Notes: a model not told the origin generated them from the sequence alone. A stretch of DNA of 64,000 nt from Longimicrobiales bacterium (GCA_965203235.1 CBDBCH010000002.1:94-64093); one strand, 5' to 3'; shown: positions 18,245 through 53,053, numbered from the stretch's first letter. Program-made: numbers and translations.

Positions 18245-18245
18245 C

Positions 18246-20156: not shown

Positions 20157-20176
20157 GGGCAGCCCACCCCCTCGCT

Positions 20177-21393: not shown

Positions 21394-21397
21394 GGGT

Positions 21398-23670: not shown

Positions 23671-23671
23671 A

Positions 23672-30377: not shown

Positions 30378-30378
30378 G

Positions 30379-36574: not shown

Positions 36575-36591
36575 GGCCCGGTGGACCCGAA

Positions 36592-37038: not shown

Positions 37039-37039
37039 A

Positions 37040-37848: not shown

Positions 37849-38285
37849 CAGACGCCAGTCTCGACGTAGCCGGTGGCCGCGCCGGAAGCAGCCGCAAGCT
37901 CCACCTCGTACATGATGTGCCCTCGCGCATCAGGGGTGAGCTTCTTCGATACCACGGAGACCTCGAGAGCCTGCGTCACGCCGGTGCGGTGGGTGATCGT
38001 GAAAGTTCGGGGAGGGGTGGCCGCATCCGCCACGGGGCCGAGCCGCTGGTAGTCGCCGGTCGCGCCAGCCTCGAAGAACCCCTTGAGGGTGATCCGAGGG
38101 AATTCCCGGACGCCAACCGAGCCTTCGGAAGCGATCTCGTCGCCGAGAGTGGTTGTGTCCGCCATGATCGCATTGACCTGGATGCCGGAGCATTCCATGA
38201 CGTCGTCGAGCGCGACGGCGGAACCGACGGTGTTGCTCGAGATCGAGTCGATGGAGAATTGGTAGTCGCGGGGGCCGATAGGCAT
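37848..38285 (-). CDS. Putative tail tube-like structural protein (145 aa)
   Basis: The size and beta-rich composition are typical of small tail tube proteins, and it sits in the structural module. Confidence 0.4.
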   Translation of the reverse strand: MPIGPRDYQFSIDSISSNTVGSAVALDDVMECSGIQVNAIMADTTTLGDEIASEGSVGVREFPRITLKGFFEAGATGDYQRLGPVADAATPPRTFTITHRTGVTQALEVSVVSKKLTPDARGHIMYEVELAAASGAATGYVETGV

Positions 38286-38297
38286 GGTGGGTCTCCT

Positions 38298-39068: not shown

Positions 39069-39548
39069 CTAGCGTTCCTTCGTGAGGATCATAACAGCCT
39101 CGTACTGCGACCGCCCTTGCGGGTTGATCTCCACGAACTGGGGTTCCTGCTCGCAACGCACATCCGAATACCAAGTGTCGGGCGGGGGTTGCGGCGCATT
39201 GGGGTCGGTAGGGTCAGGACGCGGTCCCTGTGCGAGACTACGCCCGGAAGGTTGCCATGAGTTGGCCATTTTTTCGATGCTTTGAACCGCCGCGAAAACC
39301 GCCTCCCGCGCCTCGCGGGGCATCCCCCGCGCCACCCCCTCGGTCGGAACGACCAGCACCACGACGTGCATATCCGCCTTCGGGACGCCCCCAAGCAAGT
39401 GGAGTGGAGAGCCGCCTCGTGCGGCCACCTCGATAAAGACATCCGACGGAAACTCCCGAAGCTCCGGCCAGCGGGTATCCCATACCTTCCACCGGTCTCC
39501 GTGATCCGCCTTGATCCGCGCCCGAATATCCTGCACGAGTTCGGCCAT
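39069..39548 (-). CDS. Putative neck/tail-completion protein (159 aa)
   Basis: Position is between the connector-like genes and the tail genes. Confidence 0.4.
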   Translation of the reverse strand: MAELVQDIRARIKADHGDRWKVWDTRWPELREFPSDVFIEVAARGGSPLHLLGGVPKADMHVVVLVVPTEGVARGMPREAREAVFAAVQSIEKMANSWQPSGRSLAQGPRPDPTDPNAPQPPPDTWYSDVRCEQEPQFVEINPQGRSQYEAVMILTKER

Positions 39549-39549
39549 G

Positions 39550-39921
39550 TCAGTTCACCCCCACCCGGGTTATGTAGCGAGAGTTGTCCGAGGGGTCCCG
39601 AACCCGCCCCGCAATCGAAACCACCGCGTGTCGCTCCCCAGAGCTTCCCCACTCGAAGTAGTCCGTCAACCCCACCTCCACAGGATCGTAGAAGGTCAGA
39701 GTCCAAACGCTACCCGGTTCGATAGTGTCCGAAGCCGCCCGCGCCGCCTCGTTCCCCACGATCTCCGCCTTCAATTTGCGGGAATCGTAGCTCGTAGGAC
39801 GACCGGTTTCCTCATCCAGTGTAGAGCCGCCGTGGTAATGGACGACATCCTCCAGCAGTTCAAGGTCATCCAGCGTCTCCCGGACAGCCTCCACCGTGTC
39901 GTCGAGCCAGTCGGCAGGCAC
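39550..39921 (-). CDS. Putative head-closure/neck protein (123 aa)
   Basis: VPADWLDDTVEAVRETLDDLELLEDVVHYHGG... The GTG start lies 2 nt after the upstream stop (seen in the mirror at 63846). ORF-track 39550..40260 is trimmed. Confidence 0.45.
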   Translation of the reverse strand: MPADWLDDTVEAVRETLDDLELLEDVVHYHGGSTLDEETGRPTSYDSRKLKAEIVGNEAARAASDTIEPGSVWTLTFYDPVEVGLTDYFEWGSSGERHAVVSIAGRVRDPSDNSRYITRVGVN

Positions 39922-39923
39922 GA

Positions 39924-40436
39924 TCAAACCCTCCGAAGCGGATAGTTCAGGTTGCCGCTTCCCGCCACTGTCCCCCAAGCCTCCGGGAGCATGTCCGTCA
40001 CCGCTTCCGGGATAACCCGGCGAATCGCCCCGCCAGCGAACTGCGAACTGCCCGTCTGACGAATCGCAAAATCCTTCAACGGCAAATCCTTCGTCCGCTC
40101 TTTCCGGTGGAGCGCAAGCCCAAGAAGTGCGGTCATCTGTTGAATCCGGGTAGGAATCTCGGTTGAACTGATGTAGCCGCCATGACCGAAAACCGCAGGC
40201 ATCCACGCCCTCGGCCAAGCGAGCGGTTGCTCCATGTGCGAGGCACGACCGTTCCACCATATCCCCGAACTCAGCACCTCACTCGCAAGACGCAACAGAG
40301 CCTCCTTCCTTGCGAGCGTGGCATCAGCCGAACCTTCGTCAATGGACGCCCAACCAGCCCCATACGGGTGCCCGGCGAGATAGGCGTCTGCCACCGACAC
40401 CACGCAGAGGGTGTCGGTGGCGAGAGTAAGCGCCAT
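39924..40436 (-). CDS. Head-tail connector (gp6-like adaptor) candidate (170 aa)
   Basis: Directly downstream of the major capsid gene. ...ADAYLAGHPYGAGWASIDEG..ATLARKEALLRLASEVL....GRASHMEQPLAWPR resembles the gp6-like adaptor pattern ending in Q-x-L-x-x-PR. Confidence 0.5.
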   Translation of the reverse strand: MALTLATDTLCVVSVADAYLAGHPYGAGWASIDEGSADATLARKEALLRLASEVLSSGIWWNGRASHMEQPLAWPRAWMPAVFGHGGYISSTEIPTRIQQMTALLGLALHRKERTKDLPLKDFAIRQTGSSQFAGGAIRRVIPEAVTDMLPEAWGTVAGSGNLNYPLRRV

Positions 40437-40450
40437 CAGACGCTCCCGTA

Positions 40451-41602
40451 TCAGACCACCGGGGTGGCGATACGGACGATCATCTCCGGGCGGACGACGG
40501 TGAAACCGTAGAGAGCCGAGAGAGTGTACCGAGTACCGCTCTGAATCCGGGTTTCCTCCAGCGTAAGGGAGAACCCGGTTCCGGGGTCAACCAGAGACCG
40601 AATACTCCCGTTGCCCTGCTGCCGGGGAGCGACGGTAGGCCGCATGGCCAAAGCGAAAGCATTGGGGTTCATCGCCCAAGCCGGACGGTGGGTGAACCGC
40701 CGCCCCAGTGCGGTGTTATCGGCCACATTAGCCGCCAGCGGACGGTCAATAGTGATGTTGCCCGCAACCCCGGAGATTCCAGCCTTGACCGCGTAGAGTT
40801 GGCCTCCGAACAGCACGACCTCGCCGGGGTTGATGCCAGACGCGCCCGCAGCATCCACCGGGATCACAGTCGCGCCTGCGGTGACGCCGCCAGCGCGATT
40901 GACCGCGCCCGAGTTCGCTCCCCGCGTGACAGAGGGAATGTTGTTCGAGACAATGAACCGGAATCCGAACGAAGTGCCAAGGTCGCCGGTAGTCTGAATC
41001 TCCGTAGCGGGAACCTGTCCCCGGAAGTCCGCCCGGGTGAAGTCCGACGCACCGAGGAAGTCCTCCTGATCGGTAGGACTGACGAACATGAAGAACTGCC
41101 CCATGTCCGCGTCCCGCGAAGCCAGCAAGCGAAGCGCGGTACGAGTCGCGTTGGTGTTGTTGAAGGCGGTCCCCTGCGCGGTAGTCCCGTGGTTGATCGC
41201 GCCTTCCGCGACATTTTCCGCGACATGCTGGAACATGTCAGCCTCGATCTGGTCAGCCAGAGCCGCCCCGTAGGTCGCCCCAATCGCGGTAAATCCCTCG
41301 CCTCCAACGGAGTAGGAATCCCGATCGTTGACATCCCAATAGACCCGCTTCCAGTGGTCGAGGGTCAGGGTCCGGGTGGTGGTCTGCGGTTCCGCGACGG
41401 CGCCGCCAAGCGAAGTGGCGAGAGTCGGGACATCCCCGACAGTCGGCTTCGTGATGTAGTTGAATTGCAGGGTTTCGCCCTGCGCCGCAGCGTTCAGACG
41501 AGCCGAAAGGTCGCGGTACGCCGCCCGCGCAAAGGTAGCCCGCTTCCGAAGCGCAGCAAGAGCCTGCGCCAAGATGGTGAGCTTAAAATCATTGAGAGCC
41601 AC
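40451..41602 (-). CDS. Major capsid protein (383 aa)
   Basis: Its size, its position after a coiled-coil scaffold-like gene and near the portal gene, and a composition typical of HK97-fold coat proteins support the call. There is an AAGGAGGGAG RBS upstream. Confidence 0.7.
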   Translation of the reverse strand: MALNDFKLTILAQALAALRKRATFARAAYRDLSARLNAAAQGETLQFNYITKPTVGDVPTLATSLGGAVAEPQTTTRTLTLDHWKRVYWDVNDRDSYSVGGEGFTAIGATYGAALADQIEADMFQHVAENVAEGAINHGTTAQGTAFNNTNATRTALRLLASRDADMGQFFMFVSPTDQEDFLGASDFTRADFRGQVPATEIQTTGDLGTSFGFRFIVSNNIPSVTRGANSGAVNRAGGVTAGATVIPVDAAGASGINPGEVVLFGGQLYAVKAGISGVAGNITIDRPLAANVADNTALGRRFTHRPAWAMNPNAFALAMRPTVAPRQQGNGSIRSLVDPGTGFSLTLEETRIQSGTRYTLSALYGFTVVRPEMIVRIATPVV

Positions 41603-41623
41603 GACGCTCCCTCCTTACCGCCC

Positions 41624-42313
41624 TTACTGAACGGTGGTCTGGAGGACGACTTTGCCGGAAGCAATGTCATCCAGGTTCGACAGCACGAAGTCGTCCGAAG
41701 CGTCAACCTCTATCTTCGCGCCATTCTTGCCAAAGGGCACCGCCCTGTCAGTCCCGCCACCGGAGGGACCCCTGAAAAGGTGCTTGGCGTCTCCGAACTT
41801 CGCATCGTTCAGGTACGCGCCTAGCGTTTCGGGAAGCGAACCGCGCCGCACTTGCTCGCCTTGCGGGTCAAGGCGCACCGCGTTGCCTTCCTGCATCGTC
41901 CACCCATCAAGCTGCGCCCGCCGCTCCAAGTCGGGCAGCGCGCCTTCGGTCAGCCCCATCCCGTGAACCGCCTTGCTTAGCGTAGACCGGAAGTCAGCCT
42001 GAATCTGCTTGGTCTCCAGAGCCTTTTTCTCGCTCTCCAGAGCCTCCATTTGCTCCCGGAGCTTGTTGACTTGCTCCGCCAAGGCTGTGTTTTCAGCCGG
42101 GTTCCCGGACCGCTTGGCCTCCGCCATCCGCTTTTCCAACGAGATGTTGTTCTGTCTGAACTCGTCGACCTTGCCGCGCAACTGCTTCACTTCGGGGTTA
42201 TCCCCTTCCGTGTGAAGCAGATACGAGCCATCGTCCTGCTTGACATAATGGTCCCGGAGAGCCTCCGGGAGTTGCGCGTGGGCTTGCTCGTCGAGCGAAA
42301 ACTGAAGTGCCAT
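41624..42313 (-). CDS. Scaffolding protein candidate (229 aa)
   Basis: Central heptad-rich E/K/L/Q segment (VKQLRGKVDEFRQNNISLEKRMAEAK...LREQMEALESEKKALETKQ). Located immediately upstream of the capsid gene. Confidence 0.5.
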   Translation of the reverse strand: MALQFSLDEQAHAQLPEALRDHYVKQDDGSYLLHTEGDNPEVKQLRGKVDEFRQNNISLEKRMAEAKRSGNPAENTALAEQVNKLREQMEALESEKKALETKQIQADFRSTLSKAVHGMGLTEGALPDLERRAQLDGWTMQEGNAVRLDPQGEQVRRGSLPETLGAYLNDAKFGDAKHLFRGPSGGGTDRAVPFGKNGAKIEVDASDDFVLSNLDDIASGKVVLQTTVQ

Positions 42314-42333: not shown

Positions 42334-43176
42334 TCAGAACGCAAGTTTTCTCTGTATCGGTCCCGGATCAAAGTTCAACCACAGCACCTCCGTGCGCCGC
42401 GTGTCTTTCCGCTTGCCGTGCTCCCCGAAGCTGGAGCATTGGGCTTGAAGCTCCAGCCGATTCCAGCCAAGATGATTCCACTCCTCGCCGTAGCCGGAAA
42501 TCGCCACCGCGCCGCGTTGCGCTATCAGAGCCTCGGATATGGCTTCCACATCAAGCGTCTGCCCGTTGTCTTTGTATGCCCGACAGTCTGCAGTCCGGTA
42601 GGGAGGATCGCAGTAGACCACGGCGTCCTCGTATTCGGAGACCCGGTTCAGGATGGTCTCCGCCGGTCGGGAATCCAGTTGAACCTTGCGCAGCCGCTGC
42701 GCCAGTCGGAAAACCCGCGAGCCGTCCCGCCAACTGCCCGTGTGGGGGTGGTGCTTGAAGTTCAACCCGAAGCTCGCCGCCCGCGCCGACCCGCCCACCG
42801 CCGCGCCAAGCAGCACCGTCCAAATCGCCGTCGCCCGCTCGACATTCCCGTCCGGTTCCTTTCCCGCCGTCGCCGCCATGGTCCGATGCGCCAACTCATA
42901 GTGCTTGCGCGAGTGCGGCGTAAGTTCAAGGTGCTGCGCCAGCCGCTCCGGGTCATCCCGAACTGCCAACCACCAGTTCACCACATGTCCGTCAAGGTCG
43001 TTGACTATCTCGACGGGGGAAGGTCGCCGTTGGAGCAGCACCCCAAGCATCCCCGAAAACGGTTCGATGTAGCGCGTCCGGTAGGGCAGTAGCTCGGTGA
43101 TCCACCGACCTGTGCCTGACTTGCCGTTCACAGATTTGCCGCCGTAGTAGTAGGGACCGGAGAGGGGTCGCCGCAT
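42334..43176 (-). CDS. DNA N6-adenine methyltransferase (Dam-like, D12 class)
   Basis: N-terminal YYGGK, AdoMet motif IEPFSGMLGV, ...IVNDLD..., and catalytic motif VVYCDPPY. Confidence 0.85.
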   Translation of the reverse strand: MRRPLSGPYYYGGKSVNGKSGTGRWITELLPYRTRYIEPFSGMLGVLLQRRPSPVEIVNDLDGHVVNWWLAVRDDPERLAQHLELTPHSRKHYELAHRTMAATAGKEPDGNVERATAIWTVLLGAAVGGSARAASFGLNFKHHPHTGSWRDGSRVFRLAQRLRKVQLDSRPAETILNRVSEYEDAVVYCDPPYRTADCRAYKDNGQTLDVEAISEALIAQRGAVAISGYGEEWNHLGWNRLELQAQCSSFGEHGKRKDTRRTEVLWLNFDPGPIQRKLAF

Positions 43177-44618
43177 CAGGACTCGTCGTCCTCGCCGTCC
43201 CCTTCCTCGCTTTCTCCGGGTTCGGGAGCCTGCCCCTGCGCAGCCGCAAGCGCGGGAGGCATGGGCGCGGGTTCCTTGATTTCAGGCACGTAGCGTTCCG
43301 CCGGGCGGAGCCACTCGCCGCGAACCAACGCATTGGCAAAGGCTTCCGGCGAGATGAGCCGGTCTTGAACCAGTTGAACCAGCCCGCTGATGTCCGCAGG
43401 CGACAACCGGGTGTCAATCCAGTCGCGGTTCAGGGTGATGCTCGGCTCCTCCCCGGCGTAGCCCATCCACCGCTGGTGGAGCCGAAGCGCATTGCCAACC
43501 ACCCGTTCCACCTCGTCAACTACGCAATGGAGCAGGGTTCGGTCGCCGCTCGCCTTGATTTGCGCAGCGGTGGCGGTCTCGGCGTGGCGCACGGGTTCGG
43601 TGACTACCCGCGCCCCCGCCCCGGCAAGCTGGCGAGCCTTGCGGCCAAGCGCGGTCTCCAGCGCAGCCATACCAGGACCTTGTACTTCAAGGATTCCGGC
43701 GGAACCGGTGGAACCCAAGTACCAGACTTCGGAGCTTCCGATCTTCGCGTTCTTGGGCGGTTGCGGAGCCGAAATCCACGGAGTCGGCAGCGCGACGAAG
43801 TGGAGCGCATGCTCCAAATCGGCGGAAGTTCGGAAGTAGCTCAGCGACAAATCCGCCACATCCAGCATGGTCGGCTTGGGTGGCGAGTAGGGAATCGCCG
43901 TTTCGCTCGGCAAATCCCCGACATGAACCGGGAGGACGTCTAGCGGTTGCCCGGAAGGGAGCCGCAGCGGGAACTCGGCGGCAAGCTGGAACCCAGAGGC
44001 GTCGTCCCGCCATTCCTGCCGCAACGCGCCGAAGCCCGGTTCGCCGATAGACGAATCCGGGGTGTCCCCGAACCGGTAGCGAATCAGGGTAGAGGATTCT
44101 TGAATCTCAGGGATTTCGTCCTCGCTAGCCGGTCGCCAGCCGCGTTCCTCGACGATCGCCTCGGACAGCCCGCCGCCCATTACGGGGGTCGGTCCTCCCC
44201 ACCAGTAGCGCAGGTCAACCGCTTGATGCACGCGCCAGTAAATCCGCTGACCGTAGACATCCTGCAAGAGAATGACCCGCCCGGAGATCAGGATTTCCCG
44301 AATCACCTGTTCGACGATCCGGTTGATCCCGCTCCCGAACAGGTCAAGGTCCTCCATGTCTTTCTCCATGACGGCGGGGACGGAGACTTCGGGCGGATGC
44401 CGCAAGACCACACCGATCAGAGCCTCCACGGTGCGGGAGAACGCGGGGTAGAAGTGCGCCCGCTCCAGGTACGCCCGGTAGTCGGTGCCCTCGGAGAGGG
44501 GGGGCAGGTACTCGATCCCGCGACCGCGCACCGCGTCCACGCCCTCGAAGCAGTCCCGGCACCGCCGCCATTGGTCGCGTCGCTCCGTCCACTGGGGGTG
44601 CACGCTCTGGATCGCCAT
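43176..44618 (-). CDS. Portal protein (480 aa; DUF4055-like N-terminus)
   Basis: MAIQSVHPQWTERRDQWRRCRDCFEGVDAVRGRGIEYLPPL...YRAYLERAHFYPAFSRTVEALIGVV matches the DUF4055 portal-family pattern as I recall it. The ATG at 44618 is preceded by AAGGTGGGA. The 75-codon 5' extension in the ORF track is rejected. Confidence 0.7.
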   Translation of the reverse strand: MAIQSVHPQWTERRDQWRRCRDCFEGVDAVRGRGIEYLPPLSEGTDYRAYLERAHFYPAFSRTVEALIGVVLRHPPEVSVPAVMEKDMEDLDLFGSGINRIVEQVIREILISGRVILLQDVYGQRIYWRVHQAVDLRYWWGGPTPVMGGGLSEAIVEERGWRPASEDEIPEIQESSTLIRYRFGDTPDSSIGEPGFGALRQEWRDDASGFQLAAEFPLRLPSGQPLDVLPVHVGDLPSETAIPYSPPKPTMLDVADLSLSYFRTSADLEHALHFVALPTPWISAPQPPKNAKIGSSEVWYLGSTGSAGILEVQGPGMAALETALGRKARQLAGAGARVVTEPVRHAETATAAQIKASGDRTLLHCVVDEVERVVGNALRLHQRWMGYAGEEPSITLNRDWIDTRLSPADISGLVQLVQDRLISPEAFANALVRGEWLRPAERYVPEIKEPAPMPPALAAAQGQAPEPGESEEGDGEDDES

Positions 44619-44639
44619 GGTGCTGGAGCGTATCCCACC

Positions 44640-44680
44640 TTGATACAGGTAGCAAGGTTCCGGGTAGAATCCCCACCGTG
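44640..44680 (+). promoter_or_regulatory. Candidate promoter giving a leaderless or near-leaderless mRNA for the + strand ATPase gene
   Basis: TTGATA at 44640..44645, 19-nt spacer, TAGAAT at 44665..44670, GTG start at 44678 only 7 nt after the -10. No RBS fits in between. Confidence 0.3.
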
Positions 44681-45934
44681 GGAAAACAGAATGGCGAGTC
44701 CGGGGGAGCTTCCTACCCGCCTTACAAGGAACTGATTGCGCAAGATGTCGCGTTTCTTGGGGTCCGCCAGCTTGCGTGGCGCGCGTTCTGGCTGCGCCAC
44801 TACATCTACGAGCTAGCCCCGAAAGACCAGGACCCCGAAGCACGAGCGGCGCTGGAGGCGACCCGCAAGGAATACCGCCGCCGCCTCCGCCCCCGGATAG
44901 ACGACGAGGACGAACTCGAGGATCGGGAGCGTCGCGCCGCCGATGCCGAAAATGATGCCGCCGCAGCGCGGATTCTCACCGAGCACCGCCCGCATCTGAC
45001 GCTAGTACCCTTCGGACTGCCAGAGCCGCCAGCTGTAATCAAGCCCGCCCACCGCCAGGGAGTTTTCCTCGGTGAGGGGATGGTCGGGATAATGAGCGGT
45101 CCGGGGGAGACCGGGAAATCCACGAGCTTGCTCGCCTTGCTTCACGCCGCCGGGCCCGCCCACTCGAAAGGAATTGACCCCTTCGGGACTGCGATAGGAC
45201 TGAGCGTCCGGCAGGGCCCGGTAGCCCTCCTGAACTACGAGGACCCGCCCCAAATCATCGCCCGCCGCATGGAATGGTACGGACCCCCTTCGGATTGGTC
45301 GCACGTGAACTTGATGAGCGCAAACTGCGGACCGCTATGGGGGCCGGAAGATAACTTCGCCCGGGTCTATTCGGAGACGGAGGACTGGAGCATTCTCTGG
45401 TCGGAAGTGAAAAAGGTAGGTGCGAAGCTCGTGGTCATCGACCCAGCGAGCGTCGCTTTCGCCGGGAATGCGAACGAAGCGGCCGGGGTACGCGCTTTCC
45501 TGGCCGCCCTGACCGGTCAAGCAGTCAAGAACGCGTGCGCCGTCCTCTTGATCGCCCATGATACGAAGTCAAGCCGCAGGGAAGCTGATGTCGCTGGAAC
45601 AGTCTCCGGGTCCGCCCAATGGGTGGATGGCGCCCGCGCCGTCCTGCACCTGCGACCACTGCCGCCAGCGCATGAACACTCCAACCCGGAGCTAGGGGAA
45701 GATCGCTTGCTGGTCATCGCAAAGGCGAACTACGCCCGGTCGGGTATCGGACACGTGCTGGTGCCTCGCACCGGGAGCGATGGTAGATGGGCGGGATTGG
45801 AGGCCGCCAGCCCCGCAAGGGAGTACAGTCGCCATGAGATCGCCGCCCTCGTCAAGGGCGCAGGCAAGCCGAAACAGAAAAAAGCGAAAGCGGAAGAACC
45901 AGAAGAAGCCGAAACAGACGACGTCGACTTCTAA
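44678..45934 (+). CDS. RecA-like (AAA_25/RepA-DnaB C-terminal type) ATPase, paralog 1 (418 aa)
   Basis: Walker A GPGETGKST, Walker B KLVVIDPASVAF, and LLIAHDTKSSR...SGSAQWVDGARAVLHL. It is the only + strand gene here and is divergent from the portal gene. Confidence 0.7.
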   Translation: MGKQNGESGGASYPPYKELIAQDVAFLGVRQLAWRAFWLRHYIYELAPKDQDPEARAALEATRKEYRRRLRPRIDDEDELEDRERRAADAENDAAAARILTEHRPHLTLVPFGLPEPPAVIKPAHRQGVFLGEGMVGIMSGPGETGKSTSLLALLHAAGPAHSKGIDPFGTAIGLSVRQGPVALLNYEDPPQIIARRMEWYGPPSDWSHVNLMSANCGPLWGPEDNFARVYSETEDWSILWSEVKKVGAKLVVIDPASVAFAGNANEAAGVRAFLAALTGQAVKNACAVLLIAHDTKSSRREADVAGTVSGSAQWVDGARAVLHLRPLPPAHEHSNPELGEDRLLVIAKANYARSGIGHVLVPRTGSDGRWAGLEAASPAREYSRHEIAALVKGAGKPKQKKAKAEEPEEAETDDVDF

Positions 45935-46974
45935 ATCTTGATGGTGTCTACAGGCGCGCTGTAGTTCGCCATCGGCACCGAGAGGAAAGCGTTGTTGTCG
46001 TCGTCCCTTTCGATGTGAAGAATCGCCCGGAAGGTCGCATTCCATTGAACTGACCCTGATACGCCGCGGTCGCCGCCCTTGCCGGAATGCGCCACCGCGC
46101 AGAACGCGAGTCCCTTCGTTTTCGCTTCTTCGTTCATGCTCTGGATGAACTGCCGGGCGGGAGACGCAGTTTCGCCAGCGTCGAACGCTGCCGCCAGGGG
46201 GTCGAGCAGGAGAACGCCGCCCTCGGTGATGCCGAGCTTGCGTCTGGCGTCCCGCGCCGCCAGCCCCACCTCATCCCAGAATCTTGCGAACCAAGGACTA
46301 GGACCGGAGCCGGTTCCGGTGTCGCGGGTCTGCCACAGGGGGCGCGCCTTCATCGGGACGAAAAAGAGGGCGTCAGAGCCCGTGAAGCCGAGTTGCGAAG
46401 CTCGCTGGCGCATTCGGAACGGGGAATCCTCGTAGGAAGCGAGAATCCAGGGGGATACCCGGACGGAAATTCCCATGTGGTTGACGCGGGAGCCGGGCTT
46501 GCCGCCGGTCGCCTTGACCGCAAGCTGGAGCGAGAAAGTGCTCTTGCCCGCCTTTGGCAAACCTGTGATAGCAAGTGGTTCCCCGATTGACAGGAGAGAG
46601 CCGGTTCGGTCGTTCGCCAGGCGGATTTCGGGGTCGGGGAACTGAACCTGCGCCGGAAGCAGGGTAGGCGCGAACTCGCCAAGAGCTTGCCGGACTATCC
46701 GAACCCGATCCTCCTCGCCGGTGTCGGTGTGCGCCGCGAGCTCCAGTTGCGCCAGCTTTTCGGCCTCGTCCGCGTAGTCGGTCGTTTGACCGAACACCTT
46801 TCGGGAAAGCCGAATCATGGCCGCGTTGTACTCCCGGCGAGCTTCCGAGGCCTTGCGGGAGCCTTGATCCCGAAGCGAGCGATACTCTCGCATCTTCGAG
46901 CAGGCAAGCTCGGTCAGGTATTGGGTGTCGGGGTCGTCGGGGACGAGGGTCTTGACCGGAAGTTCGTGACTCAT
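45931..46974 (-). CDS. RecA-like (AAA_25/RepA-DnaB C-terminal type) ATPase, paralog 2 (347 aa)
   Basis: Walker A GLPKAGKST, Walker B GVLLLDPLAAAF, and CAVAHSGKGGDRGVSGSVQWNATFRAILHI. Alignable by eye with 44678..45934. Confidence 0.7.
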   Translation of the reverse strand: MSHELPVKTLVPDDPDTQYLTELACSKMREYRSLRDQGSRKASEARREYNAAMIRLSRKVFGQTTDYADEAEKLAQLELAAHTDTGEEDRVRIVRQALGEFAPTLLPAQVQFPDPEIRLANDRTGSLLSIGEPLAITGLPKAGKSTFSLQLAVKATGGKPGSRVNHMGISVRVSPWILASYEDSPFRMRQRASQLGFTGSDALFFVPMKARPLWQTRDTGTGSGPSPWFARFWDEVGLAARDARRKLGITEGGVLLLDPLAAAFDAGETASPARQFIQSMNEEAKTKGLAFCAVAHSGKGGDRGVSGSVQWNATFRAILHIERDDDNNAFLSVPMANYSAPVDTIKI

Positions 46975-47205
46975 AGCAGCTTCCTCTGCGTCGGGACGAG
47001 CGTCATGGGATGCCCCTACGCGGGTCTTTGCGGGAGAAAGCAGGAAAAAACCGCTCGCCGCGCAGGGGGTCTGTGTAGCCCTCGGCCGGGTCGTCGCGGA
47101 CCAGAACGACCAGCACGGAGTGCGGTGCCCATAAAGGAGTGTTCCGAATTTGGGAAAACAGAACAGTGGGCTACGGGTCGCTCGCCGACCGAGGGCAAGA
47201 TCATC

Positions 47206-47772
47206 CTAGCACTTCTCCGAAGTGCCTTCAAGCTGAAACCGCCTTCGCGACTCGTTTTTCTTCCGCTGGTATTCCAGGAAACAGCCCCGGCACTTCTTGC
47301 GGCGCGCCCGGCGGGGTGCTTCCCACCAGTCTTTCAGAATCCGATCTCCGCAATCCCCGCACAGGTGTCGGGTGTGCGGAACCCACGCTTCCCCGCGCCT
47401 CTTCGCCCGCGCCTTCCCGAGTTGGCAGTCCCGGCACCGGAGCGAACCGCGCCTGGGGTCGTATATCCAGTCGTCGGCAACTTGAATCTCGCAGTCTCTA
47501 CACTGGAACGGTCGCAGTCTTGGGTTTTTCCGATTCCGTTCCATTTGTCTTTCCCGCTTGGCCTCTCGGTTCATCGTTCGGAATTTCATATCTTCTTCGC
47601 TCTGATCATCTTCGCTTTCGTGGATATCAAGTCGAGGCAGGACATCATCTATGTGCTTGCGCAGCAACGCCTCCCGCATTCGCCGGTCTGCATCTTCTTT
47701 GACCCGCTTCAGCCATTCATCGACCGGGTTCCTTTCCGGCGGTTCCTGAATGGGATTGTAGATTTCGTTCAC
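47206..47772 (-). CDS. Cys-rich multi-zinc-ribbon protein (188 aa)
   Basis: CRDC...CRDC, CGDC...CRGC pairs. Acidic and basic N-terminal half. GTG start at 47772. Confidence 0.55.
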   Translation of the reverse strand: MNEIYNPIQEPPERNPVDEWLKRVKEDADRRMREALLRKHIDDVLPRLDIHESEDDQSEEDMKFRTMNREAKRERQMERNRKNPRLRPFQCRDCEIQVADDWIYDPRRGSLRCRDCQLGKARAKRRGEAWVPHTRHLCGDCGDRILKDWWEAPRRARRKKCRGCFLEYQRKKNESRRRFQLEGTSEKC

Positions 47773-47789
47773 CGTGATATGCTATCCCC

Positions 47790-48125
47790 ATGAGAAAGCG
47801 CAGCGCAGCCGAAGAACGTCTGGCGATTCTGATTGACCGTGCGGGAATTCCGAAGCCGGAGCGGGAACTGGTTTTCGCCCGGCCTCGCCGGTGGCGGTTC
47901 GACTTCGCCTGGCCTGACCTGCTGCTCGCGGTCGAAGTCGAGGGGATTTCTCCGGGGTTCGGTTCGAGACATCAGCGGATCGGCGGGTTCTTGAAGGATT
48001 GCGAAAAGTATGAAGCCGCCGTCTTGGGCGGTTGGATGGTGTACCGAGTGCCGACCACCTGGATCGAGCGGGAACCGAACAGGGTCATTCGGAACATCAA
48101 ATCGCTGGTGGAGATGGCGAGTTAG
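47790..48125 (+). CDS. PD-(D/E)XK nuclease (DUF559/Vsr-like) (111 aa)
   Basis: ...RWRFDFAWPDLLLAVEVEG....H......KD.EKYEAAVLGGWMVYRV fits the DUF559 pattern (D-F...E-V-D/E-G...H...D..K/R...GW.V.R). Opposite strand to all neighbours. Confidence 0.6.
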   Translation: MRKRSAAEERLAILIDRAGIPKPERELVFARPRRWRFDFAWPDLLLAVEVEGISPGFGSRHQRIGGFLKDCEKYEAAVLGGWMVYRVPTTWIEREPNRVIRNIKSLVEMAS

Positions 48126-48128
48126 GGC

Positions 48129-48452
48129 TCATCCCTTTTTCTGCTTGCTGCGCCTTGCATTTTTCGCTTCTCGCCGGGCGCAGTATTCGTCCATAGCGGC
48201 GAGAACTGCTTTCCTCTCATCTACGGTGCATTGCTCTATGGGGAGCGTGTAGATTGCGGTACGGACTATCACCGAGACTTGATGCTGTATCCCGGTTGTT
48301 TCATTTGCGACTACCACGCATTCGCCTGCCTTTGCGAAACTGCTGTGTCCCAACACCGCGCCGCAAGCGCAGCTATCAACTTCTTCGACTTTCTTGTCAT
48401 GGGGATGCACTGAAACGTAGCGGTAGACGACCTTCCTCTTGATGGTTCTCAC
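48129..48452 (-). CDS. Hypothetical protein (107 aa)
   Basis: VRTIKRKVVYRYVSVHPHDKKVEEVDSCACG... The GTG overlaps the upstream stop (GTGA). ORF-track 48129..48677 is trimmed. Confidence 0.5.
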   Translation of the reverse strand: MRTIKRKVVYRYVSVHPHDKKVEEVDSCACGAVLGHSSFAKAGECVVVANETTGIQHQVSVIVRTAIYTLPIEQCTVDERKAVLAAMDEYCARREAKNARRSKQKKG

Positions 48453-48754
48453 TTGTCTTTCTCCATAATCTCGTGCCCGACCATCTCCTCGATGCGCGGG
48501 TCGCGGTGGGGATACAGACCGTGGAACTTGGCCGTCCAGTGCTTCCGGTCGCGGGGCCGCTCGCAATTCCCGATGATCGGATAGAGCGCCTCGGAGTCCT
48601 CCCGCCATTCCGGGGACTCCAGCAGCGTCTTGTAGGGGTCGCCGCCGAAGCGCCCGAGATGGTAGATCATCGCCCACATGTGGGGGTGGCGCCGCCAGAT
48701 GACGCGCCAGTGGGCGACGTTCACGGGCCGCAAATCCGCGAGGAACTGGTTCAC
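48449..48754 (-). CDS. Hypothetical Trp-rich protein (101 aa), paralog of 49011..49355
   Basis: WRVIWRRHPHMWAMIYHLGRFGGDPYKTLLESPEWREDSEALYPI can be aligned with QRLWRKQPRYWYVIHAMAKTPAGHFREIAESDEWKRDAKHVFYA. Confidence 0.55.
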   Translation of the reverse strand: MNQFLADLRPVNVAHWRVIWRRHPHMWAMIYHLGRFGGDPYKTLLESPEWREDSEALYPIIGNCERPRDRKHWTAKFHGLYPHRDPRIEEMVGHEIMEKDK

Positions 48755-49011
48755 CGCGTCTCCCTGTGCTCGGAGATCGCCCGCCGCATCTCGTCGACGA
48801 GACGCTCCACGCTCCTGTGCACGCTCGTCACGACCTCGGCATCAACAGCCCATCGCGCCAGTACGTCCCGGACCCGCCGCAAGTCGCGCTCGAGTTGTGT
48901 CGCAGCGTCAAGTCGGAGACCGACGGCCGGTTGCTCGTCCTCGTAGCCTTCGGGAGGCGAGTGCAGATCAGGCTGGTTCTGCGGGAGATTCGGGCGGTTG
49001 CGATAGCTCAT
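48751..49011 (-). CDS. Hypothetical protein (86 aa)
   Basis: MSYRNRPNLPQNQPDLHSPPEGYEDEQ... The ATG overlaps the upstream stop (TGATG, seen in the mirror at 54754..54758). Confidence 0.5.
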   Translation of the reverse strand: MSYRNRPNLPQNQPDLHSPPEGYEDEQPAVGLRLDAATQLERDLRRVRDVLARWAVDAEVVTSVHRSVERLVDEMRRAISEHRETR

Positions 49012-49355
49012 CAGAAAAGGCTCTGCTGTTTGACCGGGGCGCGGTTTCGGTCGTCTGCGGGGTTTTCCAGCATCGCCAGTAGCTTTGCGTGCGTCTCCTG
49101 CTCGCGCCGCTTCACAGCTTCCGGGTCGGGAGCCGTCAATTCGGCGAACGGCTTGGCCCAGTCGGGCACCGAGTAGTTTTCCGGGCGGGTCGCGCCCATC
49201 GCGTAGAACACATGCTTCGCATCCCGCTTCCACTCGTCGCTTTCTGCGATCTCGCGGAAGTGGCCGGCTGGTGTTTTCGCCATCGCATGGATGACGTACC
49301 AGTACCGGGGCTGCTTGCGCCAGAGCCTCTGCTGTGCCTTGATGTCAACCGGCAC
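49011..49355 (-). CDS. Hypothetical Trp-rich protein (114 aa), paralog of 48449..48754
   Basis: See 48449..48754. GTG start. Confidence 0.55.
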   Translation of the reverse strand: MPVDIKAQQRLWRKQPRYWYVIHAMAKTPAGHFREIAESDEWKRDAKHVFYAMGATRPENYSVPDWAKPFAELTAPDPEAVKRREQETHAKLLAMLENPADDRNRAPVKQQSLF

Positions 49356-49869
49356 TTTGCGCCGCCATCCGCTTCTTTCTCCAGTACCTTTCGCGCTCCA
49401 GTCTCCTCTCGCGCACTCGGTAGCAGGGTTCGCATGTGCGTCCCTGCGTGCGGTGCCGCGGCAGTCGGAGACGACCGCAAGCCGAGCACTTGACGCGCCC
49501 GTCGGGACGACGAAGATTCTCAGGTCGACGCAATTCCCGGAGCCGCACCAGGTAGCAGGGGCGGCATCTCCTCATCCGGGGCTTCGCGGGCGGGCGATCT
49601 CGGCCGCAGTCGCGGCACATGATCGGCTCCAGCGACGTGTTGCAGATAGGGCAAATTCCGCCGTGAAGGTCGGCGTCAAACACCTTGTCGCATCGCGCGC
49701 AGCACTGGGAAGGGACATTGATCGGGCGCCTCCTCTTGGGCCCCGGCGGCATCTTCTCGTCGAGCGGGCATGGATCCTCCAGGAGCGCCTTCTCGAACTC
49801 GAGGCGCATGCGCTCCACTCGATCCGCCCGAAGGGATGGCGAGTGTCTGCTATTCGGCATACCTGACAC
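49345..49869 (-). CDS. Cys-rich multi-zinc-ribbon protein (about 171-174 aa)
   Basis: CARC...CPIC, CRDC...CRPC, CSAC...CEPC pairs. The start is either GTG at 49869 or ATG at 49860. Confidence 0.55.
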   Translation of the reverse strand: MSGMPNSRHSPSLRADRVERMRLEFEKALLEDPCPLDEKMPPGPKRRRPINVPSQCCARCDKVFDADLHGGICPICNTSLEPIMCRDCGRDRPPAKPRMRRCRPCYLVRLRELRRPENLRRPDGRVKCSACGRLRLPRHRTQGRTCEPCYRVRERRLERERYWRKKRMAAQSAG

Positions 49870-49875
49870 GCCGAG

Positions 49876-50427
49876 TCATTGCTTGGCGTTCCTCTTCCAC
49901 CACTTCTTGAGGCACGGGTCGCAGCGCATCCGCATCCCCTGCCTGCCGCTCGTCATAGCCGTCCCGCACTCCACGCAAAGACCCGACTGGCGACGCTCGC
50001 GCTTGACGCCCATTTTCCGGGCGCGACTCCGGTGCCGCTCTGCGAGAGCGCGGTTCGCCTGGGCGCGCTTGCCAGTGGTCGATCTGATGCTGGACGGCCC
50101 CACCTTTTCGATAAGCGCCCCCTCGCCGCGCCCCTTCGACTGACGCCTTCCGCCGCCGGGCGGCCGGCTCGACCTGCTCATGGCGTTCCGGTAGGCGTCG
50201 TATTTCCGGCTCCTGCCCTGGGCGCGACCTGTGGTCATCCTGATGCTGGAGGGGCCGACCCGCGTGGCCAGCGCGCCTTCTCCGCGCCCCTTTCCTCCCC
50301 GCTTCCGGACGCGACGGCTGACCTCCTTCTCCTGACACCGGTCGCACTTGGTGAAGTGCGAAGGCTCCCAGCACTGCGTGCACAAGCCGTTGTCCACACA
50401 GTGCCAGTACTCCCAGTATCGAGGCAT
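49876..50427 (-). CDS. Zinc-ribbon protein with an internal ~40-aa tandem repeat (183 aa)
   Basis: N-terminal CTQC...CDRC and C-terminal CVEC...CDPC flank two copies of KGRGEGAL(A/I)x(R/K)VGPSSIR(M/S)TTG(R/K). Confidence 0.55.
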   Translation of the reverse strand: MPRYWEYWHCVDNGLCTQCWEPSHFTKCDRCQEKEVSRRVRKRGGKGRGEGALATRVGPSSIRMTTGRAQGRSRKYDAYRNAMSRSSRPPGGGRRQSKGRGEGALIEKVGPSSIRSTTGKRAQANRALAERHRSRARKMGVKRERRQSGLCVECGTAMTSGRQGMRMRCDPCLKKWWKRNAKQ

Positions 50428-50525
50428 CAGGACTTCCAGCGAATCGTAATCCGGCGGTCAAGCCACCGACGAAAGCGACCGCGCAGGATGCGCAGGCGGG
50501 AGTTCCGGGGGGCATAGTGAATCAT
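50427..50525 (-). CDS. Possible very small basic protein (32 aa)
   Basis: MIHYAPRNSRLRILRGRFRRWLDRRITIRWKS. It exactly fills the gap between two genes, with ATGA and TGATG coupling at both ends (mirror 53242..53340). Confidence 0.35.
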   Translation of the reverse strand: MIHYAPRNSRLRILRGRFRRWLDRRITIRWKS

Positions 50526-50713
50526 TTGTTTTCTCCTACGATGTACCATCCCAATTCGTCGATGGCATCCTCGATGCGATACCTAGCATTACGGAGCGAG
50601 AGTCTATCTTCGACGTCGAGTTTCGCCAGTTCCTCGGCATCGAACTGGTCCAGTTCCTCTAGGGCGGCGATGAGCCGCTCCTGGACCTCTTCCGCTCGCT
50701 CCAGCGTGGTCAT
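50522..50713 (-). CDS. Small acidic coiled-coil protein (63 aa)
   Basis: MTTLERAEEVQERLIAALEELDQFDAEELAKLD... The ATG is preceded by GGAG at 7 nt (mirror 53054). The ORF-track GTG start would add 10 codons. Confidence 0.5.
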   Translation of the reverse strand: MTTLERAEEVQERLIAALEELDQFDAEELAKLDVEDRLSLRNARYRIEDAIDELGWYIVGENK

Positions 50714-50730
50714 GTTCTGCTCCGATCCGA

Positions 50731-51027
50731 TCAGGAGAACCACCCGCGAACCTGCCGATGAGCCTCAGCCTTGCCACCGGCAATGTCCCGGTGGAACAGA
50801 ATGTCTCCCGATTCCTGCATGTAGCAGAACCGGTAGCACCCCCGGAAGGGGAACAGGATTCCGACCTGGTCAACCCGGGTTCTCCCGATGAGCTTGACCC
50901 TCTCCTTGCCCGAACCATCACTGGGTTCGAACTCGATGAGGACGCCCCCGAACTCGAGTTCCAGGACTTCGCCAATGCTCATGGGCCGGTCGGGGAGGCC
51001 GGCGTGGTTTTCGATTTGCTTTCTCAT
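50731..51027 (-). CDS. Telomere-proximal hypothetical protein of the right end (98 aa)
   Basis: MRKQIENHAGLPDRPMSIGEV... It has the same promoter, RBS and first 3 codons as 17308..17721 and is unrelated afterwards. Confidence 0.6.
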   Translation of the reverse strand: MRKQIENHAGLPDRPMSIGEVLELEFGGVLIEFEPSDGSGKERVKLIGRTRVDQVGILFPFRGCYRFCYMQESGDILFHRDIAGGKAEAHRQVRGWFS

Positions 51028-51034
51028 GTGACTG

Positions 51035-51141
51035 CCCTCCTTTGTGGCAGACGGGAATCCTAGCGTGCCCGAATTCGCCCTGTCAAGTGCCAATTCGCCC
51101 AAATCGGCACTTTTTTCGCCCAAATCGCATTTTTTTTCGCC
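51035..51141 (-). promoter_or_regulatory. ITR promoter/operator/RBS module (right end)
   Basis: Same sequence as 15506..15612. atccta at 51057..51062 and cat (start codon) at 51025..51027. Confidence 0.55.
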
Positions 51142-51521
51142 TCCTGCGGCCGGAAAACGAAAAAACGCACGAAAGGGGTTCAGACGCCACCGGAACGACC
51201 GAGGGGATAGCTGGCTAGCCGTAGCGCGCCAGGATGCCCACAGCGCGCCACAGAATCGCATTCAGGGGAACATCTGACCGGCAGACGCCCCCGGATTCGG
51301 ACCGCCGGGGCGGAAAAGACCGGCCGACCGCTCCGAAAAATCGCCTCCCCATCTCCGAGTCGCCTCCCCCCCGACTCCCCCCTGAGGGGGAGGAGGAGTC
51401 GGGGTGGAGGCGTCTCTCCAAAACACCCTCGAAAACGGCGCAAATCGGGGGAGCGAGGGCGGGACGCCAGGGACGCGGGTTCGACCGGGGGGTTCGAGGG
51501 CGGAAATCGGGGTTCTGAAAC

Positions 51522-51817
51522 CTGTCATTCGCGCTTCATTCTCGCTTCATTCTCGCTTCATCAAGGCGATGAAAGCTAACATCCCTGGGGGGGGAGTTCG
51601 GGAAATGAACCGGGGGGCTTCCACCGCTGGCGGGGATGATTCGCGGATGAAGCGCGGATGATAGAGACATCAGCGAGACATCAAGGCTAACATCAAGGGC
51701 GGATGAAGCGCGGATGATAGAGACATCCGGCGTGTCATACGGCGATGAAAAGCTAACATCAAGCTGTCATCAAGCCCACGAGCGCTATGCATAAGGCGTG
51801 TCATGTATCATTTTCGC
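51522..51817. repeat. Subtelomeric iteron-like repeat array (ITR copy C)
   Basis: Same sequence as 15993..16288 (offset +35529). Mirror copies lie at 16518..16813 and 51950..52245. Confidence 0.85.
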
Positions 51818-51949
51818 TAGCGGGAGTATGCACCTATCATCCTTAGCCGGGGACCGCTAGAAGCTCTTGGGGACGATGATAGCCCGCAAGCCCCGCTAGC
51901 CCCAGCATGTTTCGCGCCGGAGAACGATGATAGGTGCAAACTCCCGCTT
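51818..51949. other. Junction-2 core: 132 bp, asymmetric, a shortened and inverted version of the junction-1 core
   Basis: 51818..51842 is the reverse complement of 16493..16517. 51843..51846 is ttag. 51847..51949 is the reverse complement of 16289..16391. Only the outer ~25 nt on each side can pair (22/25). Confidence 0.85.
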
Positions 51950-53036: not shown

Positions 53037-53053
53037 TCGGATCGGAGCAGAAC

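Follow-up and report, generated by a model that had tools for sequence, protein, structure and literature searches.

A 35.5-kb phage unit bounded by inverted repeats, with head, tail and lysis genes, no recognizable terminase, and a RepA/DnaB-like ATPase gene beside the portal gene

Genome unit and gene content

The window, i.e. the whole stretch of DNA analyzed (64,000 nt), is palindromic about positions ~16403 and ~51883 and resolves into a single 35.5-kb unit present in head-to-head and tail-to-tail copies; positions 52740-60591 are an identical copy of the region 43176-51027. The left copy (1-13893) contains 29 homopolymer indels, which resemble long-read noise. The source contig (67.7 kb) corresponds to ~1.9 units and therefore holds nothing besides the unit. 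The gene content is coherent, consisting of early arms, head, tail and lysis genes, and no Rfam families or tRNAs were found in a search of the sequence. The unit is best read as a complete linear genome, that of an uncultured tailed phage of siphovirus-like type.

ORFs of at least ~55 aa were scanned against PHROGs, those of at least 250 aa also against Pfam, and the large unmatched ones also against NCBIfam. The left arm carries an early operon of six small ORFs on the plus strand (17308..19400), which include a Zn-ribbon protein, a member of phrog_30542 and an RHH-plus-Zn-ribbon protein (18834-19400). On the minus strand follow lysis-type genes (19590..22708), i.e. an SLT transglycosylase (19590-20303) with small membrane and coiled-coil proteins, and four large proteins of 321, 871, 1266 and 1225 aa in the distal-tail/fiber position (22705..34056), for which the sole family match was one Ig-like domain. 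The tail/head block (34056..42313, minus strand) includes a tail assembly chaperone, tail tube and neck proteins, and profile searches located the tape measure (34056-36263), adaptor (39924-40436), major capsid protein (40451-41602) and scaffold (41624-42313), all on the same strand. A D12-class N6-adenine DNA methyltransferase (42334..43176, minus strand) sits within the head module. The portal gene, of the DUF4055 type (43176..44618, minus strand; phrog_145, 7e-75), had been given a start at 44843 in an earlier, sequence-only reading of this DNA; the start is most likely at 44618 instead.

A 59-bp gap separates the portal gene from the divergent gene of a RepA/DnaB-like AAA_25 ATPase of 418 aa (44678..45934, plus strand), and a second such gene, encoding 347 aa (45931..46974, minus strand), is the final one of the right-arm operon. 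Farther to the right are a 188-aa protein of Zn-ribbon type with four CxxC pairs and no family match (47206..47772, minus strand), a putative PD-(D/E)XK nuclease of the Vsr/DUF559/EDxHD type that retains the conserved acidic, His and Lys residues (111 aa; 47790..48125, plus strand), and the small ORFs of the right-arm early operon (48129..51027, minus strand), which had no family matches. The latter include two Zn-ribbon proteins (49345-49869 and 49876-50427) and a paralogous pair (48449-48754 and 49011-49355). Across the unit, ~3,600 aa of large proteins and ~20 small ORFs were without a family match.

Terminal repeats and axis palindromes

The unit ends in inverted repeats of ~0.9 kb, which are identical up to ATGAGAAAGC at 17317 and 51018. 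The left repeat (16405..17317, plus strand) holds GATGATAG motifs, 11-nt periodic iteron-like repeats, a promoter (17249-17278, plus strand; TTGACA-N18-TAGGAT), and the AAGGAGG ribosome-binding site and start codon of the first left-arm gene. The right repeat (51018..51849, minus strand) has an identical promoter at 51086-51057. One inverted repeat with promoter, ribosome-binding site and ATG closes both ends of the unit and serves two different inward operons. GATGATAG occurred 15 times against 0.8 expected, always near the axes and nowhere else.

At axis 1, an imperfect palindrome (16289..16517) would give a 114-bp hairpin stem with a 3-nt loop (16402-16404); folded as DNA, it reached -139.9 kcal/mol (z = -24.9). 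Its arms are mismatched at 16 of the 114 positions, all by single-base substitutions and with no indels, and 11 of these 16 are N.N homo-mismatches (p = 0.004). Beyond the innermost 114 nt the arms are otherwise identical. The axis-2 junction (51850..51916) is this palindrome in reverse complement (the opposite, 'flop' orientation); it lacks 97 nt, a stretch flanked by CCTT. In this single assembly, axis 1 thus shows one inverted-complement form, and the shortened axis 2 what may be the other. Axis 1 does not match the target of a protelomerase, a perfect inverted repeat that is cut at its axis and yields fully paired hairpins; from the known mechanism of protelomerases, the 16 mismatches would not persist if such an enzyme cut and rejoined the DNA there.

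The inverted terminal repeats of the window thus end in a palindrome that pairs incompletely, as in a telomere of the poxvirus type. In vaccinia, the telomeres have inverted terminal repeats and incompletely base-paired hairpins in flip-flop, inverted-complement forms, and the head-to-head and tail-to-tail junctions are duplex copies of the hairpin (PMC8956199). The likeness of the window to poxviruses extends to the inverted repeats, the imperfect hairpin palindrome, the two kinds of junction and probably the two complementary forms, whereas extrahelical bases occur in the vaccinia hairpins and the window palindrome has 1x1 mismatches alone. Physical (covalently closed) hairpin ends of the phage are inferred from these features, in a long-read assembly with visible error in one copy. 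Vaccinia possesses the A22 resolvase and the A32 packaging ATPase; in the window, by contrast, no RuvC-like resolvase or FtsK/HerA-type ATPase was found, and the capsid is of the HK97/portal lineage. The Rudiviridae (SIRV1/2) are archaeal rod-shaped viruses having linear dsDNA with inverted repeats, closed hairpins and head-to-head intermediates but no protelomerase; their enzymes include a Rep nickase and an Hjc resolvase, and they lack a portal and an HK97-type capsid.

Search for packaging and replication enzymes

To our knowledge, the terminase is the DNA-packaging enzyme of all known tailed phages. Few phage proteins are as conserved as the large terminase (TerL), which was readily detected in distant relatives of the window's portal. 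The sequence-only reading had described a virion module without a recognizable terminase, protelomerase, integrase, protein-primed polymerase or terminal protein, and had proposed a Pfam/PHROG search; no terminase, protelomerase, PolB or primase was detected in that search, and the description also held in tblastn and motif tests.

Among the unit ORFs, the Pfam, PHROGs and NCBIfam scans revealed no large terminase family, no protelomerase, recombinase/integrase or transposase family, and no PolB or primase family. Nor did the profile scans of the unit detect an RNase H-like terminase nuclease domain, a protein-primed polymerase, a terminal protein, an HUH nickase or a Holliday-junction resolvase family. 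Tyrosine/serine recombinase domains (Phage_integrase, Resolvase/Recombinase, rve/DDE) had zero matches in the unit ORFs, and the resolvase families covered (RuvC/A22, RusA, Hjc, T7 endonuclease I and T4 endonuclease VII) had none in the window. When the window was searched by tblastn with the TerL of Xp15, R5C and L005, the best E was 0.45. Motif scans found no PolA or HUH motifs and, in any frame, none of the PolB motifs (DxxSLYP, KxxxNSxYG, YxDTDS); Walker A was confined, among the credible ORFs of the unit, to the two AAA_25 genes. No unmatched ORF of the early regions exceeded 190 aa, compared with a protelomerase size of 400-650 aa. Structure predictions covered two proteins, the ATPase and the 111-aa nuclease.

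The two AAA_25 ATPases

The 418-aa and 347-aa ATPases are paralogs (30% identical), with Pfam AAA_25 scores of 74.6 and 55.3 bits, respectively (cut-off 27). Walker A, Walker B (D258) and H/K sensor motifs are present in the family, and K144, D258, H296 and K299 were invariant in an alignment of 42 relatives. The family profile matched RSF1010 RepA (PDB 1g8y) at 2.4e-21, some relatives carry fused Toprim or DnaB_N domains or adjoin Toprim primases, and distant homologs were found in primase-helicase modules. On this sequence evidence both proteins belong to the RepA/DnaB replicative-helicase family, and a helicase, ring or replication role is predicted for them. They share the AAA_25 sequence family with RSF1010 RepA, DnaB and T7 gp4, but differ from these in lacking a primase partner or domain, in a distinct, helical N-terminus of ~110 aa, and in their synteny with the portal. 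A single-sequence AlphaFold model of the ATPase had a pLDDT of 40, too low to use.

In phi29, unit-length linear genomes with defined ends are packaged by the gp16 ATPase, which has no nuclease domain. This protein is an ASCE ATPase of the TerL type, and its partners are pRNA, terminal protein and protein-primed PolB. In the window these partners were not found and the ATPases are RepA/DnaB-like; given the RepA match and the Toprim/DnaB_N fusions, a phi29-gp16/TerL-like identity was rejected. We know of no RepA-like ATPase that packages DNA.

The gene physically adjoining the portal gene in the window is that of the 418-aa ATPase, whose ortholog is the second ATPase of L012. The 347-aa gene closes an early-looking operon driven by the inverted-repeat promoter, and its orthologs adjoin DUF4055 portals in four other related metagenomic lineages with the same head and tail module. 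In these, the ATPase gene is divergent from the portal (L016 and L018/L019), co-oriented and 100 nt upstream (L017), or co-oriented and overlapping the portal start by 4 nt (L021-L023), and the portals are merely 26-37% identical. The head/tail module of the window is conserved in L002, L016, L017 and L018. No TerL was found in the L002, L016, L017, L018/L019 and L021-L023 loci, all of which are incomplete genomes, and with the window included the canonical TerL slot was without TerL in 6/6 lineages; the slot beside the portal is held by AAA_25 ATPases in the window, L016, L017, L018 and L021. The L017 contig (63 kb) is apparently no palindromic dimer, and L002 encodes RusA and an HNH/EndoVII-like protein.

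In more distant relatives TerL lies directly upstream of the portal (Xp15, L006, L008 and L010) or ~3.4 kb upstream (R5C). Judged by the portal, the cultured phages closest to the window are Xanthomonas phage Xp15 and Dinoroseobacter phage R5C, to whose group the metagenomic loci L006, L008 and L010 belong; they share with the window the DUF4055 portal, at ~30% identity, and the siphovirus-type order of head and tail genes. This group has a canonical TerL, whereas the window has two RepA-like ATPases in that place and no TerL was found. The portal-adjoining synteny lends independent support to the ATPase as a candidate packaging motor. Of the earlier proposal that the ATPase next to the portal gene is a nuclease-less motor, the association with the portal was strengthened by the syntenic orthologs in the four related lineages, and the phi29-type identity was lost.

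The 111-aa nuclease

The structure model of this protein had a pLDDT of 92. Foldseek matched it to 3r3p at TM 0.72-0.83, and also to 3hrl and 1cw0, the matches including Vsr and NGO0050, and the profile matched 3r3p at 1e-4. D38, E49 and H61 are invariant, and D70 and K73 nearly so. The protein is therefore predicted, with the model as support, to be a PD-(D/E)XK nuclease of the Vsr/I-Bth0305I type, with a modeled fold and conserved residues shared with I-Bth0305I (EDxHD) and Vsr/DUF559; unlike I-Bth0305I it consists of the catalytic domain alone and lacks a DNA-targeting domain. The model had no resemblance to resolvases (MOC1, TM 0.29). Since nucleases of this kind are also common in unrelated, terminase-bearing phages, its suggested candidacy for telomere resolution gained no specific tie.

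Interpretation

The explanation favored here, which we hold tentatively and at somewhat below even chances, is that TerL was displaced in the lineage of this phage, and that a RepA-like ring ATPase packages unit-length, hairpin-capped genomes uncut, with telomeres kept in the manner of poxviruses. One or both AAA_25 ATPases would serve as the DNA translocase at the portal, perhaps acting as replicative helicase too. Monomer genomes would already be bounded by closed hairpin ends, and because these ends delimit the monomers a terminase nuclease would be needless. Replication through the hairpins would produce the head-to-head and tail-to-tail junctions of the assembly, which may be converted into mismatched hairpins again, in the way of poxviruses and rudiviruses, when an extruded cruciform is cleaved or the DNA is nicked and refolds. 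Candidates for the junction-resolving enzyme would be host RuvC, the Vsr-like nuclease or a small protein without a family match.

Because the ATPases are of the RepA/DnaB family, a purely replicative role stays a strong rival, and it is the default annotation since no other replication protein of the phage is recognizable. The two proteins would then be solely replicative helicases, the portal neighborhood would be the boundary between early and late modules, and the terminase would act in trans (from a helper, a prophage or the host) or the phage would be defective or plasmid-like. The homologs in primase-helicase modules, the place of the 347-aa gene at the end of an operon under the inverted-repeat promoter and the opposite strand of the portal-adjoining 418-aa gene all fit this explanation, and TerL may lie elsewhere in the relatives, whose loci are incomplete. 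We nevertheless consider it rather unlikely: we know of no satellite with a full head, tail and lysis set that lacks TerL alone, the adjacency to the portal is kept across highly divergent portals, the translational coupling to the portal in one case (L021-L023) is unexpected for an early replication gene, and TerL is absent from the canonical slot in every lineage compared. It is unlikely, to a clearer degree, that the palindromy of the contig is an artifact of assembly or sequencing (fold-back long reads or template switching) and the unit part of a larger genome with TerL and replication genes. The homopolymer indels of one copy are typical of a noisy long-read consensus, axis 2 is short by 97 nt relative to axis 1, and the related L017 contig does not appear to be a dimer; yet the same 0.9-kb inverted repeat, with its own promoter, start codon and telomere-specific motifs, has its outer end at both axes, and the gene set is coherent. 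Moreover, fold-back would yield perfectly complementary arms, whereas the 16 substitutions are confined to the innermost 114 nt and recur at the other axis as the reverse complement.

Slightly more doubtful still is a packaging enzyme and telomere resolvase too divergent for profiles, hidden among the four large proteins (321, 871, 1266 and 1225 aa) or the Zn-ribbon proteins of 174-188 aa. The amount of sequence without a family match leaves room for such enzymes, fold prediction covered two proteins, L002 encodes the RusA and HNH/EndoVII-like proteins, and small Zn-binding resolvases exist, e.g. T4 endonuclease VII. Against this stand the high conservation of TerL and its ready detection in distant relatives of the portal, the absence of Walker A from every ORF without a family match, and the tail-fiber position of the large ORFs, one of which contains an Ig-like adhesin domain. 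With its palindromic junctions and linear-replicon architecture, the unit also recalls the telomere phages N15, PY54, phiKO2 and VP882, tailed phages whose linear replicons have palindromic junctions of the hairpin type. These phages have a TelN/TelK protelomerase, TerS, TerL and cos-ended virion DNA, and their perfect palindrome is cut at the axis; the window differs in its 0.9-kb inverted repeats and mismatched palindrome, and no protelomerase or terminase was found in it. That the phage is of this type, with a missed protelomerase, hairpins belonging to a linear plasmid prophage and virions packaged from cos sites, is very improbable: the early regions have no unmatched ORF >400 aa and no integrase/telomere-resolvase family match, N15-type phages keep TerS and TerL, neither of which was found here, and cutting at the axis would be expected to erase the 16 arm mismatches in one generation.

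If the displacement of TerL by a RepA-like ATPase is correct, this would be a tailed phage with all virion genes but the terminase, in which a helicase-like ATPase takes the terminase's place beside the portal. The same arrangement of ATPase beside portal recurs in several related uncultured phages.

Gene content of the unit

The analysis showed the 35.5-kb unit to be a complete, self-delimited tailed-phage genome without a homologue of the large terminase (TerL). Two palindrome axes, at about 16403 and 51883, were found in the 64-kb window, which therefore holds one full unit between reverse-complement copies of the same unit. The same sequence of about 0.9 kb lies, inverted, at both ends of the unit. 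The source contig measures 67,717 bp (about 1.9 units) and thus carries nothing beyond unit copies.

Genes were called with a codon-usage model and then scanned in Pfam, PHROGs and NCBIfam. The portal (43176-44618, minus strand; DUF4055 family, phrog_145 at 7e-75) and the major capsid protein (MCP; phrog_283 at 3e-35) were identified, together with scaffold, Ad1 adaptor, tail assembly chaperone, tape measure, Ig-domain tail protein and SLT lysin, and two AAA_25 ATPases of 418 aa (44678-45934, plus strand) and 347 aa (45931-46974, minus strand). The slot between portal and scaffold genes is usually taken by a MuF-like or protease gene. Here it is occupied by a D12-class (Dam-like) adenine methyltransferase (42334-43176, minus strand), and no head-maturation protease was detected in the unit. 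The gene inventory of the sequence-only reading was correct, with the amendments that the portal probably starts at 44618, that an ATPase lies physically beside it on the opposite strand, and that the two ATPases are paralogues (30% identity).

In the same three libraries no gene of the unit matched a terminase (large or small), protelomerase, tyrosine or serine recombinase, transposase, DNA polymerase, primase, HUH nuclease or Holliday-junction resolvase. Searching the window by tblastn with the TerL of Xp15 and R5C (the Xanthomonas and Dinoroseobacter phages nearest by portal) and of L005, a locus from a relative, gave a best value of only E = 0.45. Among credible ORFs a Walker A motif occurs only in the two AAA_25 genes, and PolB, PolA and HUH motifs are absent in all frames. 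The sequence-only reading had recognised no terminase nuclease, protelomerase, integrase, DNA polymerase or terminal protein; profile searches, tblastn, and Walker A and motif scans confirmed that observation, and its interpretation is partly supported. A TerL gene broken by a frameshift, lying between portal and 347-aa ATPase, was ruled out, that 1.1 kb being a bona fide opposite-strand AAA_25 gene, and tblastn detected no TerL fragments either. Neither Rfam families (e.g. packaging RNA) nor tRNAs were found in the window.

The ATPases and their linkage to the portal

Cultured phages include no close relative of the head module, identity to INPHARED phages being at most 30% for the portal and 29% for the MCP. 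MCP-based scans of viral, metagenome and genome collections found nothing, and portal scans found relatives at about 32% identity only. In the set formed by these metagenomic portal relatives and the closest cultured phages, a canonical TerL stands immediately upstream of the portal (Xp15, L006, L008 and L010) or about 3.4 kb upstream (R5C). TerL is absent at the portal in all five phages that share the head and tail genes of the window (26-45% identity), and in four of these the portal neighbour is an orthologue of the 347-aa ATPase. The orthologue is divergent from the portal in L016 and L018/L019, co-oriented and 100 nt upstream in L017, and co-oriented in L021-L023, where its stop codon overlaps the portal start by 4 nt and the ATPase is predicted to be translationally coupled to the portal. 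The L017 (a contig of 63 kb), L016, L018 and L021 sequences come from ENA ERZ25070917 ctg119108, ERZ25068510 contig_11, SRR24576265 and ERZ23491828. In the fifth phage, L002, the portal neighbours are RusA, a VapE-type helicase and an HNH protein, with no ATPase orthologue there. The linkage of ATPase and portal is thus kept over considerable divergence, in the slot held by TerL in the next-closest phages.

HMMER searches of 1.8 billion representative proteins gave 258 relatives of the 347-aa ATPase, with no homologue in INPHARED or PLSDB. In a 42-member alignment the Walker A Lys, Walker B Asp and H..K sensor are invariant, and every member carries AAA_25. Against the PDB the ATPase profile matched RepA of RSF1010, a hexameric helicase (1g8y), at 2e-21, with RadA, KaiC and T7 gp4 next. 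By family both ATPases are ring helicases, not terminases. A single-sequence AlphaFold model of the 347-aa ATPase was too poor for use (pLDDT 40). The two genes are the only NTPases of the unit, both RepA-like and both beside the portal gene. They are convergent and overlap by 4 nt (45931-45934) with no terminator between them, so that transcription from the opposite strands must collide or be separated in time.

Genomic context was readable for seven ATPase homologues, four of which are portal-adjacent, while in one (L012) both paralogues lie in tandem. In L012-L015 (ENA ERZ23491828; NCBI GCA_009836085.1, GCA_009839485.1) these tandem genes, of 414 and 426 aa, are orthologues of both window ATPases, so the two paralogues are conserved as a set beyond this genome. 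After the pair comes a 423-aa protein, seen likewise behind primase-linked AAA_25 genes (L020).

Structure of the putative telomeres

Axis 1 would correspond to an unfolded hairpin with a stem of 114 bp and a loop of 3 nt, and folding it as DNA gave -139.9 kcal/mol (z = -24.9). The stem carries 16 isolated 1x1 mismatches (in 16289-16393 paired with 16413-16517), substitutions throughout, spaced 4-14 nt apart and in several cases within repeated CGC(A/T)(A/T)G elements; outside the stem the arms are identical. Homo-mismatches (A.A, T.T, G.G, C.C) make up 11 of the 16 (p = 0.004), and the pattern suggests designed asymmetry, not random drift. Axis 2 (51850-51916) repeats the axis-1 palindrome (16289-16517) as its exact reverse complement, in the opposite 'flop' orientation, minus 97 nt. 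The lost stretch comprises the loop, 7 nt of one arm and the greater part of the other, and is flanked by a 4-nt CCTT microhomology. The gap may reflect genuine slippage that left one telomere as a deletion variant, or else an artefact of the consensus where a strong hairpin forms.

Poxvirus telomeres are characterised by mismatched hairpins that occur in two inverted-complement forms, and they are regenerated when an extruded cruciform is cleaved (PMC8956199). The ends of the unit may therefore be read as hairpin telomeres of the poxvirus or rudivirus type. L016 and L017 showed no telomere-like palindrome at their ends, and a 20-nt stretch resembling the telomere of the window is at the level expected by chance.

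A possible packaging mechanism and its alternatives

We tentatively favour, at somewhat less than an even chance, a mechanism in which TerL would have been displaced in this lineage and a RepA-like ring ATPase would translocate the hairpin-capped genome, one unit long, into the procapsid; a terminase nuclease would then not be needed. Palindromic junctions would arise by replication through the hairpins and be resolved by structure-specific cleavage or nicking, for which the Vsr-like nuclease, RuvC of the host or one of the small unassigned proteins are candidates. The wider claim is doubtful, namely that a tailed-phage (Duplodnaviria) lineage that lost the terminase packages hairpin-capped genomes of unit length through a DUF4055 portal with a RepA/DnaB-like ring ATPase recruited from a primase-helicase module, and has poxvirus- or rudivirus-like flip-flop telomeres without a protelomerase.

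The ATPases may instead be replicative helicases only, with terminase supplied in trans or the element defective. Fusions to DnaB_N, Toprim or primase Zn-ribbon domains occur in some aligned relatives, and the two most distant of the seven homologues with readable context lie in ordinary Toprim-primase and helicase modules. The idea of the sequence-only reading that the ATPase beside the portal is a nuclease-less motor gained from the portal synteny in relatives and from the position in the TerL slot, but not from the family, and a purely replicative role, though we regard it as unlikely, is a strong rival. Quite unlikely is an incomplete or artefactual assembly. The flanking copy at 1-13893 differs from the central one (18912-32806) at three substitutions and at 29 indels of a single base, located in short homopolymers, and its large tail genes are broken by such changes. 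This indicates consensus noise at the poorly polished contig end of a long-read assembly, and ORFs are to be read from the central copy. The second copy of the 43176-51027 region is identical to the first, and a fold-back sequencing artefact would produce perfectly complementary arms, unlike axis 1.

There is a slim chance that divergent enzymes beyond recognition are hidden among the unassigned ORFs. Two small early proteins (48449-48754 and 49011-49355, minus strand) are paralogues (25% identity over 60 aa, E = 3e-9) without relatives in any library. Arg-rich proteins with multiple CxxC Zn-ribbon pairs (47206-47772, 49345-49869, 49876-50427 and 17721-17972) have no detectable relative of known function. 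They recur in relatives (L002, L021 and the C-terminus of P0098), and the ribbons are fused to an HNH/EndoVII-like domain in L002 and to the ATPase itself in P0098. The large unassigned tail-region proteins matched only an Ig-like adhesin in the PDB. An N15-type phage whose protelomerase was missed is very improbable. Protelomerases (TelK, TelN, ResT) cut at the axis and join each arm to its own complement, so such an enzyme would erase the axis-1 mismatches within one generation. Telomere phages resemble the window as tailed phages with palindromic junctions, but the window is negative in both protelomerase tests.

Phi29 likewise needs no cutting, but the window has no gp16/TerL-type ATPase, terminal protein or PolB. 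Poxviruses share the telomere anatomy, whereas the virion of the window belongs to the HK97/portal lineage and A22- and A32-type genes are absent. Our literature search found no paper on tailed phages lacking a terminase or on hairpin phages lacking a protelomerase. The large terminase counts as a hallmark found universally in tailed phages and herpesviruses, and it is widely used for detecting and classifying them. Should the proposal hold, Duplodnaviria would have a first case in which a non-orthologous protein replaced the packaging motor, with a helicase-family ATPase conserved in the place of the terminase; such a motor would be categorically new. Closed-hairpin genome-end chemistry would be linked to loss of the terminase nuclease, poxvirus-style mismatched telomeres would extend to bacterial viruses, and protelomerase would not be required for hairpin telomeres. 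Terminase-based virus discovery cannot see such phages, and their double-length palindromic contigs are likely thrown out as artefacts.

Candidate junction-processing enzymes

The 111-aa opposite-strand nuclease (47790-48125, plus strand) had been put forward as a candidate for telomere resolution, but no finding links it to that step in particular. It has 94 homologues under varying names (Vsr or DUF559), its catalytic-type residues are conserved, and its structure was modelled with confidence (pLDDT 92). Structurally it comes closest to the catalytic domain of the homing endonuclease I-Bth0305I (TM 0.72-0.83), with NGO0050 and Vsr next, and the model bears no likeness to junction resolvases. 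A 54%-identical homologue occurs in an unrelated phage with a normal terminase, so the protein resembles a common accessory or selfish nuclease more than a dedicated telomere enzyme. Fold and this occurrence rule out an Hjc- or resolvase-like enzyme; nicking at the mismatched telomere is possible.

In L002, the closest head-module relative, 7162-7617 and 152-1054 hold a RusA with a C-terminal Zn ribbon, adjoining the portal gene, and an HNH/EndoVII-like protein that contains 54-nt tandem repeats. Both are possible junction-processing enzymes and are absent from the window.

Repeats and promoters near the ends

Fifteen copies of GATGATAG occur in the window, against 0.8 expected, all within about 300 nt of the axes (16128-16678 and 51657-52110). 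Alongside them lie 11-nt periodic ATGAAGCGAGA repeats and a duplicated 29-mer. These elements look like iterons and are putative binding sites of a telomere or origin protein.

The end-to-end identity of the unit breaks off precisely at ATGAGAAAGC (17317 and 51018), so that each repeat gives a promoter, ribosome-binding site and start codon to a different inward operon. Both repeats close with a TTGACA-N18-TAGGAT promoter, an AAGGAGG ribosome-binding site and ATG AGA AAG (17249-17317 and 51018-51086), and two distinct early operons, inward from both telomeres, thus share their first three codons.
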